From a virus (taxonomy: Duplodnaviria; Heunggongvirae; Uroviricota; Caudoviricetes), in IMG/VR virus record IMGVR_UViG_2534681941_000049, positions 1-5,560 of that record: a stretch of DNA of 5,560 nt; one strand, 5' to 3'. Under the pieces are notes generated by a model. That model saw nothing but the letters and a program-made list of their open reading frames with translations, made no database searches and had not been told where the DNA came from. Of this stretch, positions 1-5,353 are shown piece by piece; position 1 is the stretch's first letter; the number at the start of each line of letters is the position of its first letter. The position numbers and the translations under genes are program-made.

Positions 1-114
1 GCGATGCGCCTGCAAGAGGCATCCGGCGGGGAACTTCAGTACGACCCCAAAGTTTATGACGAATATCGTAAGGCAAAGCGGGCGGGGCGGTTGAACAATG
101 AAAATCACCCCTGA
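1..114 (+). CDS. 3' end of an upstream gene (partial, start lies outside the window); product unknown
   Basis: Frame 1 is open from the window edge to TGA at 112-114 (…MRLQEASGGELQYDPKVYDEYRKAKRAGRLNNENHP*). Its end overlaps the ATG at 98 of the next gene, the same compact arrangement seen through the rest of the operon. Too short to assign a family. Confidence 0.3.
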   Translation, partial: AMRLQEASGGELQYDPKVYDEYRKAKRAGRLNNENHP

Positions 115-649
115 ACAGGTTTGTGAGGCTCTGGATGCCTGGGTGTGCCGACCAGGAATGACACAGGAACAGGCGACGATATTAATCACGGAAGCATTCT
201 GGGCTCTGAAAGAACGCCCGAACATCGATGTTCAACGCATCACGTTTAATGATGGCGAGGTTGATCAACGGGCGCTGGGCGTTAACCGGGTGAAGATATT
301 CGAACGCTGGAAAGCTATCGACACCAGAGATAAGCGTGACAAATTCACGGCGCTGATTCCGGCAATTATGGAGGCTATCCGGATCAGCGATTTCAGATTG
401 TATTGTGAAATTACTGACGGAAAAAGCATTACGTACATGATCGCCGGGTTAAACAAAGAATATGGCGATGTGGTGGAGTCCGGGCTGCTTTTTGCGGATC
501 CAGTTGTTGTGGAACGTGAGACTGACGAGCTTATAGAAAAAGCTATTGCTTTCAAGCACGCGTATCGTCAGCAATACCAATATTACTTTGCAGATAAACA
601 AATGTCTGCCAGGGGTTCGTATGAGTATCGATGCACTACGATGGGCTAA
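98..649 (+). CDS. YdaT-family protein (DUF1019-like; CII-like regulator of Rac-type prophages), 183 aa
   Basis: ATG at 98, TAA at 647-649. The N-terminal half (MKITPEQV…AW…; …KIFERWKAIDTRDKRDKFTALIPAIMEAI) matches my recollection of E. coli Rac YdaT (…KIFRWVEKDT…ALLPAIEK…). It sits immediately upstream of the replication initiator, as ydaT/cII does in Rac and lambdoid phages. Family call is from memory, not a search. Confidence 0.7.
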   Translation: MKITPEQVCEALDAWVCRPGMTQEQATILITEAFWALKERPNIDVQRITFNDGEVDQRALGVNRVKIFERWKAIDTRDKRDKFTALIPAIMEAIRISDFRLYCEITDGKSITYMIAGLNKEYGDVVESGLLFADPVVVERETDELIEKAIAFKHAYRQQYQYYFADKQMSARGSYEYRCTTMG

Positions 650-1661
650 AAAGGTGAAAACCGGCAGTTCATCCAGTAAGTCAGTATTGACCTGGCTTGC
701 TGATATGTGCGGTGCCGATTTGTGTGCATACCCGTCTGTATCTGCACTGGCAGAAGTAACGGAACTGAACAAAAAGACTGTGCAGGACAGCTTACGACAC
801 CTGATGGAGATTGGGTTAATTGTTGATACCGGTGAGAGAAAAGGCAGAACAAAGCAAATTGTGGTGTACCGACTTATCGGTGTAGAAGAAAGTGTTGCCG
901 AGCCTGAATACACCCAAAAACGGGTGTCTTTAAAGGTGGGTAAAATTGGTGCTGTTAATAAAAACAGTACCGAAAACGGTTATGTTTCAGCACAAAAGAG
1001 CCCCAAAAACGGAACTCTTTGTTGCATGGAAAATAACCAAAGACACCCAAATTTTCCATCAAAGACACCCAAAAACGGATCACGGAACCCAAAGGAACCC
1101 AAAGATCTAAACCCCACACATAACGCACGCGAGAGTGCTCCGACCAGTGAGCAGGAAGTTTTGTCGTTACAGGCAGCCCCCCATGTATTCCTGGATGGCC
1201 TGAGCGAACCCATCGGAAAATTTCCGATGACCGATAGCTGGTATCCGTCACGGGATTTTCGACGACGGGCTGCGTTGTGGGGGATGGCTTTGCCGGAGAC
1301 AGAATTTACACCTGCTGAACTTACCGCATTCCGGGACTACTGGGCAGCGGAGGGGAAAGTGTTTACGCAGATTCAGTGGGAGCAGAAATTCGCCCGTCAC
1401 GTAAATCACGTCAGGGCGCAGGTTAAACCAGTCAGCAAGGGGGTAAACCATGCAGCAGCACCAGGTGGCACCGCATCACGGGCAGTTCAGGAAATTCGGG
1501 CAGCACGTGAGCAGTGGGAACGTGAAAACGGATTTATCAGCGACGGAAACGGCCTGGAAGCTGTGGGAACTCATGGGGGAGGTTTATTCGAACCGCTGGA
1601 CCCAGAAGAACGGGGCCGCACCTTCGAAGCTCTGGATTGCACAGATTGGCGCGATGACTGA
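621..1661 (+). CDS. Phage replication initiator: N-terminal helix-turn-helix (O-like/HTH_36-type) domain plus C-terminal DnaT-like domain
   Basis: ATG at 621 preceded by AGGGG (611-615); the ORF-track start at 546 is a TTG and is less likely. N-terminus MSIDALRWAKKV…SVLTWLADMC…YPSVSALAEVTELNKKTVQDSLRHLMEIGLI is typical of phage replication-protein HTH domains. The C-terminal part (FPMTDSWYPSRDFRRRAALWGMALPETEFTPAELTAFRDYWAAEGKVFTQIQWEQKFARHV) resembles the DnaT C-terminal domain. A low-complexity P/K/N-rich linker separates them and the protein ends in an acidic tail (…DCTDWRDD). Stop TGA at 1659-1661. Confidence 0.8.
   Translation: MSIDALRWAKKVKTGSSSSKSVLTWLADMCGADLCAYPSVSALAEVTELNKKTVQDSLRHLMEIGLIVDTGERKGRTKQIVVYRLIGVEESVAEPEYTQKRVSLKVGKIGAVNKNSTENGYVSAQKSPKNGTLCCMENNQRHPNFPSKTPKNGSRNPKEPKDLNPTHNARESAPTSEQEVLSLQAAPHVFLDGLSEPIGKFPMTDSWYPSRDFRRRAALWGMALPETEFTPAELTAFRDYWAAEGKVFTQIQWEQKFARHVNHVRAQVKPVSKGVNHAAAPGGTASRAVQEIRAAREQWERENGFISDGNGLEAVGTHGGGLFEPLDPEERGRTFEALDCTDWRDD
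905..1120. repeat. Iteron-like direct repeats inside the initiator gene (putative replication origin)
   Basis: Direct repeats: aaagacacccaaa at 1039-1051 and 1061-1073 (22 bp apart); ggaacccaaag in tandem at 1084-1094 and 1094-1104; cacccaaaaacgg-type copies at 911-923 and 1066-1079, with variants ccccaaaaacgga (1001-1013) and accgaaaacgg (969-979). About seven copies of a (A/C)CCCAAA core in roughly 200 bp, all in the inter-domain linker of the initiator gene. Confidence 0.45.
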
Positions 1662-2115
1662 GCAGCAAATCCGGCAGGTCTGCCGCCAGTGCATGGACCG
1701 CTGCCGGGCGGGTGAAACATGGCCTCCGGACCTGGCTGAGTTTGTGGCACTGATTTCGAAAAGCGGAGCCAATCCATTCGGTCTGACGGTGGATGCTGTG
1801 ATGGAGGAGTACCGCCGCTGGCGCAATGAGTCCTGGCGATACGACGGAAGTGATAAGTACCCGTGGTCTCAGCCTGTGCTGTATCACATTTGCCTCGAGA
1901 TGCGTTCAAAGGGGATTGAGCGCCAGATGACCGAAGGGGAATTAAAACGGCTTGCAGAACGGCAACTGACGAAATGGGCAAAGCATGTTAGTAACGGCCT
2001 GAGCGTTCCGCCAGTACGGCGACAACTGGCGGCACCAAAACGCCCGTTGGGACCAACGCCAATTGAGTTGCTGAAACAGGAGTATGAACGCCGGAAAGCG
2101 GCTGGTTTTGTCTGA
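1450..2115 (+). CDS. Lambda P-like replication protein (replicative helicase loader)
   Basis: ATG at 1450 lies 6 nt after a strong SD AAGGGGG (1437-1443) and directly after an in-frame TAA (1444-1446). Clear similarity to my recollection of lambda P: ours …EFVALISK…[47 protein letters not shown]… versus lambda …GQFVAWCREE…YPWKSNAHYWLVTNLYQNMRANALTDAELRRKAADELVHMTARINRG…. Stop TGA at 2113-2115. Start is uncertain: in-frame alternatives are ATG 1573 and ATG 1654, the latter overlapping the upstream stop by 8 nt. Confidence 0.8.
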
Positions 2116-4845: not shown

Positions 4846-4878
4846 TGGCTAAGGCAGCAGCAGAGCGCAACTAACAAT

Positions 4879-4907
4879 CCTCGCACTCGCGGGGATTTCT
4901 TTTATCT
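4879..4907 (+). terminator. Putative intrinsic terminator (first of a tandem pair)
   Basis: cctcgc (4879-4884) pairs with gcgggg (4889-4894), including one G-U pair, loop acuc; followed by ATTTCTTTTATCT (4895-4907). Confidence 0.4.
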
Positions 4908-4908
4908 G

Positions 4909-4933
4909 AACTCGCTACGGCGAGTTTTGTTTT
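4909..4933 (+). terminator. Putative intrinsic (rho-independent) terminator
   Basis: Perfect 7-bp stem AACTCGC (4909-4915) / GCGAGTT (4920-4926) with loop TACG, followed by the T-tract TTTTGTTTT (4925-4933). Confidence 0.6.
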
Positions 4934-4946
4934 ATGGAGACAAGAA

Positions 4947-5291
4947 ATGTCAGATTTGGCTATGAAGGTTTTGAAATGGCAATCAACTGGCGATGTCGGC
5001 ATCAGTAGCGCAACTCTTGCCTCAATCGCATGTGGCCTGAAAAAGAATATCTATGGTCATGGCTTCGGTGCTCCACATGACGCAGCCGATTTCAGACGAT
5101 GCGTTGCACTTGTTGAGCAGATTCCAGAAATCAGAGATTCATTCGACAAGGTTGCAAAGCGCGTTCCGGCATTCAAAGGAATCCTCAACGAATGGGATTC
5201 CCTCGTTGCTCTGTTGAAGTCTGAAATGAAGATACACGGAAACAAAGCACCAGAGACTTACAGAAGAATCAGCGAGCTACGCAAGGACTAA
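4947..5291 (+). CDS. Hypothetical protein, 114 aa; moron-like gene bracketed by terminators
   Basis: ATG at 4947 with GGAGA (4936-4940) 6 nt upstream; stop TAA at 5289-5291. No family recognised (MSDLAMKVLKWQSTGDVGISSATLASIACGLKKNIYGHGFGAPHDAADFRRCVALVEQIPEIR…). Confidence 0.65.
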   Translation: MSDLAMKVLKWQSTGDVGISSATLASIACGLKKNIYGHGFGAPHDAADFRRCVALVEQIPEIRDSFDKVAKRVPAFKGILNEWDSLVALLKSEMKIHGNKAPETYRRISELRKD

Positions 5292-5328
5292 CGCCTCACA
5301 CTCGATGAGGCCTGTTCATATCTGATAG

Positions 5329-5353
5329 AGCCGCTATATGGCGGTTTCTTTTT
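5329..5353 (+). terminator. Putative intrinsic terminator downstream of the 114-aa gene
   Basis: Stem agccgc (5329-5334) / gcgguu (5341-5346), loop tatatg, followed by TTTCTTTTT (to 5353). A second perfect hairpin gcctca-cactcga-tgaggc (5293-5311) lies just upstream but lacks a U-tract. Confidence 0.5.

Follow-up and report, generated by a model that had tools for sequence, protein, structure and literature searches.

The initiator gene and the repeats in its linker

The stretch of DNA analyzed here (henceforth the window) comprises 5,560 nucleotides of the viral record IMGVR_UViG_2534681941_000049 and represents the early-right operon of a lambdoid prophage of E. coli, in which the gene for a replication initiator carries a set of direct repeats that we regard as a candidate replication origin. 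Over 4.6 kb, the window is 99.1-99.8% identical to O157:H7 prophages (for example those of EC4115 and TW14359), while the initiator region shows 98.6% identity to PPompW prophages. The gene order in O157:H7/PPompW-type records is a dicA-like repressor gene, a dicC/cro-like gene, a ydaT-like gene, and two genes annotated as 'phage replication protein'. The features of the window are collected in Table 1.

The ATG at position 621 agrees with the MSIDA(L/M)RWAKK start common to all homologues of the initiator, and the ydaT-like open reading frame (ORF) upstream overlaps the start of the gene by 29 nt (621-649). The product, named 'DnaT-like ssDNA-binding domain-containing protein' by the Prokaryotic Genome Annotation Pipeline (PGAP), was modelled with AlphaFold2 from a 30-sequence alignment. 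Residues 1-89 are predicted to form a helical domain (helices 3-13, 17-29, 40-47, and 51-64) with a beta hairpin (67-69/83-85), at block-mean predicted local distance difference test (pLDDT) values of 55-87 and with residues 74-76 below 50. The fold of this N-terminal domain (N-domain) gives weak matches to winged helix-turn-helix (wHTH) proteins of the ArsR/SmtB type, and the HTH_36 family (PF13730) is precomputed for homologues at 52-79% identity, the phage homologues scoring 30-47 bits. This winged-helix domain is presumed to be the one that binds the repeats. A second, confidently modelled domain (residues 196-268) matches the Pfam DnaT DNA-binding domain (PF17948, residues 201-267, 1.4e-16) and the solved DnaT C-terminal domains (profile E = 7.6e-31; Foldseek matches 6aeq/4ou6 with a template-modelling score of about 0.9).

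An earlier note made from the letters of the window alone had proposed iteron-like direct repeats of a CCCAAA-containing motif within the initiator linker, and a repeat search found every repeat that it listed in the region 905-1120. The sequence CAAAGACACCCAAA is present at 1038-1051 and 1060-1073, 22 bp apart, and AA(T/G)A(C/G)(A/C)CCCAAAAACGG at 907, 996, and 1062. The hexamer CCCAAA occurs nine times in the 5560 nt, with six occurrences in 913-1103, all on the + strand and in frames 1, 0, 2, 0, 2, and 0; TTTGGG is absent from the + strand of the whole window, hence there is no minus-strand CCCAAA copy. The linker peptide is of low complexity and encoded as quoted in that note. The repeating unit itself had to be redefined: it is a 24-bp near-palindrome with an asymmetric center, AAnnGTCCC-RAAAAC-GGGACnnTT, whose core is CC[A/G]AAAACGG and which is evident only from the homologues. 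Four such iterons cover residues 96-155, inside the unstructured linker between the wHTH and DnaT-like domains, where the earlier note had placed its repeats. Its list had missed the canonical copy at 963-986 (CCGAAAACGG). The repeat that it counted at 1040-1060 (ACACCCAAATTTTCC) does exist, but as a variant with an AAATTT center rather than a canonical copy, and its ggaacccaaag pair is likewise real but constitutes a separate element and not an iteron. In homologues, the place of 1040-1060 is taken by GTCCCAAATTTGGGAC or by an inverted copy (GTACCGTTTTTCC, peptide VPFFP). The right arm of iteron 4 contains a GATC (1078).

To score the iterons, we used a position weight matrix (PWM) derived from 70 sites of homologues only, so that no window site contributes to it. 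When the window was scanned with this matrix, four cores, starting at 914, 970, 1003, and 1069, matched with 25.5-28.0 bits, and no other site on either strand exceeded 0.6 bits. First-order Markov nulls of the whole window (1000 sequences) reached 17.2 bits at most, and a set of 5000 nulls matched to the local A/C-rich composition included no sequence with two or more matches of at least 10 bits. The single-strand DNA fold of the region (z = -3.5) is accounted for by the dyad arms of the iterons, and a separate hairpin was therefore rejected. Helical phasing was rejected as well: the iteron spacings of the window (56, 33, and 66 bp) are near multiples of 11, but spacings in the family (17, 18, 22, 24, 26, and so on) have no common period.

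Table 1. Positions of the initiator gene, its repeats, and adjoining features in the window
Feature	Position	Strand	Basis
ydaT-like ORF	98-649		
Initiator gene, 346 aa: winged-helix HTH_36-type N-domain, disordered linker, DnaT-like C-terminal domain	621..1661	+	ORF list, homologue starts, Pfam
N-terminal winged-helix domain coding region, aa 1-89	621..887	+	AlphaFold2, fold matches
Predicted disordered linker coding region, aa 90-195, holding all repeats	888..1205	+	pLDDT <50 for aa 90-173 and 175-195
Iteron 1: AATACACCC-AAAAAC-GGGTGTCTT; core read T-Q-K-R	907..930	+	PWM 27.1 bits, dyad arms 8/9
Least stable 40-mer inside the gene; resembles two decayed iterons	930..969	.	-47.0 kcal/mol vs window mean -54.9, sd 3.8
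Iteron 2: AACAGTACC-GAAAAC-GGTTATGTT; core read T-E-N-G	963..986	+	PWM 25.5 bits, arms 7/9
Iteron 3: AAGAGCCCC-AAAAAC-GGAACTCTT; core read P-K-N-G	996..1019	+	PWM 28.0 bits, arms 7/9
Variant iteron-like site: AAGACACCC-AAATTTT-CCATC, AAATTT center	1040..1060	+	Outside PWM scoring, lower confidence
Iteron 4: AAGACACCC-AAAAAC-GGATCACGG; left half-site canonical; core read P-K-N-G	1062..1085	+	PWM 25.5 bits, right arm 4/9
Tandem GGAACCCAAA x2 (+G), shortened local form of the GAAYCTAYCAAT tandem	1084..1104	+	TRF period 10, 2.1 copies
Conserved junction CAAAGATCTAAACCCCACACA, peptide KDLNPTH; boundary between the N-domain-plus-iteron module and an exchangeable C-terminal module; holds GATC	1100..1120	+	Rac-SA53 ydaU similarity, homologues
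Lambda-P-like helicase loader gene	1654..2115	+	Pfam Phage_lambda_P (PF06992) 1.1e-16, 61.5 bits, cut-off 26

Conservation of the iterons and of a second tandem element

A scan with the N-domain, taking one genome per species, yielded 26 loci at 32-76% amino-acid identity to the query, spanning Enterobacterales, Plesiomonas, Serratia, Acinetobacter, Cupriavidus, Oleiphilaceae, Reinekea, Sulfuricella, Desulfovibrionaceae, and others. A tblastn search against phage records returned Edwardsiella EPP-1, Burkholderia Bcep176, Acinetobacter AP22, Vibrio anguillarum phages, and E. coli phiV10. Nearly all loci above about 40% identity bear two to six + strand copies of CC[A/G]AAAACGG just after the N-domain: Vibrio phage Her has five 24-bp tandem core copies and a sixth 34 bp upstream, and AP22 and Bcep176 have one strict core copy each together with variant copies. 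Across 20 loci (94.6 kb), the strict motif CC[AG]AAAACGG occurs 70 times in the linker on the + strand, nowhere else on that strand, and once on the minus strand. The core is thus kept from E. coli to Acinetobacter, Vibrio, Cupriavidus, and Sulfuricella, with the flanking domain down to about 40-50% amino-acid identity. Beyond the arms GTCCC/GGGAC around RAAAAC, the 70-site matrix shows a conserved AA at -7/-6 and a T-rich +15/+16, and this dyad symmetry out to AA/TT is as expected for a dimeric wHTH site.

The 70 core sites fall into three reading frames (51/11/8), encoding (S/P/T/A)-(K/E)-N-G, (Q/R)-K-R, and P-K-T-x, respectively, with readings such as PKNGT/PENGT, QKRN, and PKTG, and frames are mixed within one gene in loci L011 and L019. 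By contrast, only 4 of the 90 third-codon positions in the folded N-domain do not vary among eight enterobacterial sequences. Since the core is invariant in three frames while nearly all third positions of the folded domain vary, selection appears to act on the DNA and not on the peptide. The earlier note had suggested that the DNA repeats constrain the protein here, and this view is borne out by one core being kept in three frames, always on the coding strand, across distant hosts. Homologues with diverged linkers point the same way: the DNA repeats persist in them, the reverse of repeats being lost while the linker protein is retained. Per-position conservation of the first iteron in the eight enterobacterial genes was imperfect, and this measure was replaced by family-wide enrichment. 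Among 123 family representatives, core-encoding peptides are about 36 times denser in residues 86-190 than elsewhere in the protein. Across phage types, the array always lies within the initiator gene and adjoins a gene for a helicase loader or a helicase.

The type of iteron varies together with the N-domain. The core CCRAAAACGG is absent from loci below about 40% identity, and the seven of these that were examined all carry arrays of their own at the same position, with three to eight repeats at a spacing of 17-24 bp (for example GGTAGTCTCACCATGAGACC five times, or ACCGGTAGGGAAAAsCATAC eight times). In the N-domain alignment, 24 of 24 loci with a Lys-Thr pair at the start of the third long helix (K52-T53 in the window) have the CCRAAAACGG type or a near variant, and none of the eight loci without Lys-Thr at this position has that type, counts that are not corrected for shared ancestry. 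Such co-variation matches what is predicted for direct read-out by a putative recognition helix.

A second element follows the iterons. Throughout the family, two to four tandem GAAYCTAYCAAT units lie within a few bases after the last iteron, full examples being GAATCTACCAAT three times in an Acinetobacter locus and GAACCTATCAAT three times in a Methylococcaceae locus. The shortened tandem of the window, which includes the ggaacccaaag pair mentioned above, is orthologous to GGAATCTACCAAAGGAACCTAAAG of L006, and the nearest relatives carry GGAATCTACCAAAGGAACCTAAAGATCTAAACCCC in place of the window's GGAACCCAAAGGAACCCAAAGATCTAAACCCC. Across 31 loci, the strict form GAAYCTAYCA has 32 matches, every one of them on the + strand and inside the linker, with no occurrence elsewhere in 148 kb; its frames number 19, 12, and 1, the main two reading E-S/P-I/T-N or N-L-S/P. 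The GAAYCTAYCAAT 12-mer (seen in L009-L033, in the linker after the last iteron) persists in distant homologues with different iterons, and a by-eye comparison of the 12-mer with the IHF and DnaA-box consensus sequences revealed no match. We infer that this tandem is a candidate unwinding or single-strand-binding element. The segment 930-969 is a weak candidate for an unwinding region; homologues have extra iteron copies at its place. After iteron 4, GC content is about 48-52%.

Natural variation, the module boundary, and neighboring genes

Alleles in E. coli show how the repeats behave as DNA. Two protein clusters (P0033/P0036) of 324 residues lack the 22 codons between iterons 3 and 4 owing to a 66-bp in-frame deletion that runs exactly from iteron core to iteron core (1003-1069), and an 89-bp deletion in strain MS14387 (L041), annotated as frameshifted, runs from the core of iteron 1 to that of iteron 3 (914-1003). 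Because these deletions extend exactly from iteron to iteron, the iterons behave as recombining DNA repeats. Iteron 4 is invariant in eight of eight aligned E. coli sequences, and iteron 1 in all seven that retain the site (it is deleted in one).

The GGAACCCAAA unit of the second element is found in one, two, or three copies in E. coli, and one or three copies shift the frame (L035 at about 1960-1995; L040). The frameshifted alleles consist of an HTH-only ORF of 160-170 residues ending in ...KPHT and a DnaT-like pseudogene; indeed, a first protein search with the N-domain alone had returned mostly short fragments that represent such alleles. The 10-bp GGAACCCAAA unit is therefore a slippage hotspot that switches the initiator off. 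In Klebsiella pneumoniae CP063913 (L036), the gene is split at the same junction into a 162-residue HTH ORF ending in ...NPHT and a DnaT-domain ORF.

The tandem is followed by the conserved junction at 1100-1120, where the protein appears to change module. Similarity to Rac-SA53 ydaU starts at about 1101-1105, at LNPTH, and many E. coli proteins annotated as 'replisome organizer' or DUF1376 share only the DnaT-like half from LNPTH on. As only the C-terminal half is common to other proteins, the N-domain and the iterons would travel as one specificity module, as happens in lambdoid phages. The junction sequence is kept in L003, L004, L006, and L007, and partly in L008. Its DNA, AAAGATCTAAACCCC, is conserved across different C-terminal modules.

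Downstream of the initiator gene lies the gene that PGAP names 'replication protein P'. Its ATG overlaps the initiator stop codon at 1654-1661 (ATGACTGA), an arrangement that suggests translational coupling and that is also annotated in Rac-SA53. Genes of the DUF1627 and DUF977 families come after this P-like gene. At 4860-4930 and 5290-5350, in the gaps between small genes farther downstream, G+C-rich inverted repeats with T runs behind them (for example cctcgcactcgcggggatttcttttat and agccgctatatggcggtttctttttg) resemble intrinsic terminators. A scan of 500-1800 revealed no promoters or terminators, and Rfam gave no match.

A probable origin embedded in the initiator gene, rival explanations, and known systems

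Based on these sequence features, we think it likely that the core of a theta-type replication origin of the prophage lies at positions 907-1104, within the segment of its own initiator gene that codes for the linker. By analogy with lambda O at ori-lambda and with iteron plasmids, each iteron would be bound by dimers of the N-terminal winged-helix domain, the predicted recognition helix starting at K52-T53 reading the GTCCC half-sites. The array of bound dimers might then wrap and strain the DNA such that the duplex opens beside it, the candidate places being the tandem repeat that directly follows iteron 4 and the AT-richer segment 930-969. The DnaT-like C-terminal domain could hold the single-stranded DNA and/or recruit a P-DnaB complex, leading to loading of the host helicase. 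Being disordered, the linker should tolerate whatever peptide the iterons encode, in any frame.

Several observations weigh against this origin and its assignment. The HTH_36 match of the initiator (PF13730, residues 36-67) reaches 20.9 bits, below the cut-off of 25, and BLASTP of the initiator against lambda O gave chance matches only; there is no match to PF04492 (Phage_rep_O) either, and we do not claim homology to lambda O. No clear AT-rich unwinding element adjoining the array was found, the least stable 40-mer being about 2 sd above the mean and inside the array. The orthologous first iteron is lost in one of the eight enterobacterial genes (L007) and degraded in two (L004 and L005), and the link between Lys-Thr and iteron type could owe something to the shared ancestry left in its count. 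Within E. coli (an allele comparison set that includes L001 and L037-L040), iteron 2 reads CCGAAAATGG, with a synonymous C>T change in the core, in five of seven other aligned sequences, and iteron 3 in some alleles reads ...AAAAACAG (CCCAAAAACAG), with a G>A change in the core. Either fewer than four sites suffice, or many prophage copies are decaying or no longer selected to replicate. Finally, no description of this origin or its motifs turned up in the library of papers that was searched.

These points bear in part on a different role for the same contacts, namely that the repeats are bound by the initiator's own HTH domain but mainly for autoregulation, copy control, handcuffing, or exclusion of related phages, with replication starting elsewhere. 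We rate this as unlikely. Titration of initiators and inhibition of replication are known for plasmid iterons and for ectopic ori-lambda copies (PMC4488673, PMC3349717), and purely regulatory sites would sit well with the lack of a convincing AT-rich unwinding element next to the array and with the point changes tolerated in iterons 2 and 3 of common alleles. However, the array is always inside the initiator gene, in one orientation, adjoining a loader or helicase gene and followed by the second tandem element, an anatomy that belongs to origins and not to operators, and there is no promoter-like site near the array for it to control. Moreover, a regulatory role and an origin role are compatible.

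The protein itself offers another reason for keeping the repeats: a repeated PKNG-type linker peptide might be functional, the DNA similarity being its by-product. The PKNG/PENG frame is indeed the commonest (51 of 70), and several enterobacterial linkers align as protein. Yet the same 10-nt core also encodes QKRN (11 sites) and PKTG (8 sites), sometimes in one gene (L011 and L019), and remains invariant at all codon positions over phyla-level distances, against 4 of 90 third positions in the folded domain; dyad symmetry would be meaningless for a peptide, and the linker is predicted to be disordered and tolerates a 22-residue deletion. We therefore give this explanation very little credence. 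We view with the same skepticism the idea that the repeats are neutral products of slippage or duplication in a low-complexity linker, or of chance in an A/C-rich composition. Slippage is real, as the 10-bp unit in one, two, or three copies and the deletions between repeats attest, and the local composition is skewed. Neither accounts for the failure of any of the 5000 local-composition nulls to yield two matches, nor for the recurrence of the same core, strand, and dyad in Enterobacterales, Acinetobacter, Vibrio, Burkholderiales, and others whose linker DNA is otherwise dissimilar, nor for the link to recognition-helix residues.

Beyond an embedded origin as such, the family could follow a two-part origin code, an idea that we put forward tentatively and consider rather doubtful. 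Variable iterons would co-evolve with the recognition helix, and the invariant tandem 12-mer GAAYCTAYCAAT (two to four copies) would serve as a conserved, sequence-specific unwinding or single-strand-binding element, kept despite differing iterons, C-terminal domains, and helicase or loader genes. If true, the 12-mer would be comparable to the oriC 13-mers or DnaA-trios and would be read by a conserved surface of the N-domain or by a universal host factor, and in more than 2000 phage initiator clusters it would pinpoint where the helicase enters.

Shiga-toxin phages possess replication units with YdaT and HTH_36 proteins whose replication is stated to be unstudied (PMC8951638). Of 5426 complete E. 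coli genomes, 907 carry the proposed origin type described here, many O157, O145, and O111 strains among them, and the N-terminal domain family comprises 2274 clusters at 50% identity; the same layout appears to recur across this large, uncharacterised family of phage initiators. The iteron consensus, the predicted recognition helix, and the candidate second element are testable targets that would make it possible to map the origin, to predict incompatibility and exclusion among prophages that share a host, and to build mini-replicons. The locus also illustrates cleanly how a function of the DNA can override the coding of protein where a linker is disordered, with one motif in three frames and a 10-bp tandem whose copy number switches the initiator ORF off.

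Among known systems, iteron plasmids of the RepA/RepE/pi/TrfA type have winged-helix initiators that bind direct repeats of about 17-22 bp in one orientation, next to an unwinding element with short tandem repeats. Their iterons lie outside the rep gene, and their initiators have two WH domains and bind as monomers. The sites in the window, by contrast, are inside coding sequence and dyad-symmetric, a symmetry that suggests dimers, unlike the monomers of plasmid initiators. Rac-SA53 shares with the window the gene order dicA-dicC-ydaT-initiator-loader, and its ydaU/ydaV genes show 90.6% DNA identity to the C-terminal half of the initiator gene from ...LNPTH on and to the start of the next gene. 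However, the N-domain of its YdaU is DUF1376 and not HTH_36, and its ydaU linker has no CCRAAAACGG-type repeats. An active origin, oriJ, has been attributed to Rac (PMC3945230). The chromosomal, vertically inherited genes for DopC and DopE are domesticated lambda-like genes, thought to be phage-derived and proposed to act as a helicase matchmaker (Brezellec et al., 2017, PMC5509034). DopC resembles the initiator in having an HTH_36 N-domain and a DnaT C-terminal motif, and it is followed by a Replication-protein-P-like gene (DopE). In contrast to DopC/DopE, for which the authors found no iterons (PMC5509034), the phage counterpart in the window carries four and belongs to a prophage module.

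A close parallel is lambda, and the comparison drawn in the earlier note is upheld in iteron design, position in the O linker, use of several frames, and a P-like gene downstream. Both loci carry four direct repeats that share one orientation, each a dyad centered on an asymmetric A-tract (TCCCTC-AAAAC-GAGGGA in lambda and GTCCC-RAAAAC-GGGAC in the window). The annotated lambda iterons are TCCCTCAAAACGAGGGA and relatives, and the AAATTG center of lambda iteron 3 is similar to the AAATTT variant of the window. In lambda, as in the window, the iterons occupy the linker that joins the DNA-binding N-domain to the C-domain, and their sequence is translated in more than one frame; gene P of lambda is directly downstream of O, just as a P-family loader gene overlaps the initiator stop in the window. 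The proteins differ, in that the N-domain of lambda O is Phage_rep_O (PF04492) whereas that of the window is of the HTH_36 type, and the DnaT-like C-domain of the window is unlike the C-domain of lambda O. The spacing of the iterons is irregular and wider in the window than the roughly 20-24 bp of lambda, and the 40-bp AT-rich block that follows the last lambda iteron is replaced in the window by the GAAYC-type tandem repeat. The lambda origin is experimentally proven, whereas that of the window is a candidate drawn from sequence. On this comparison, we would class the locus as a new, uncharacterised representative of a known group, the lambda-type origin inside the initiator gene, predicted to be lambda-like in its working while standing outside the O family.

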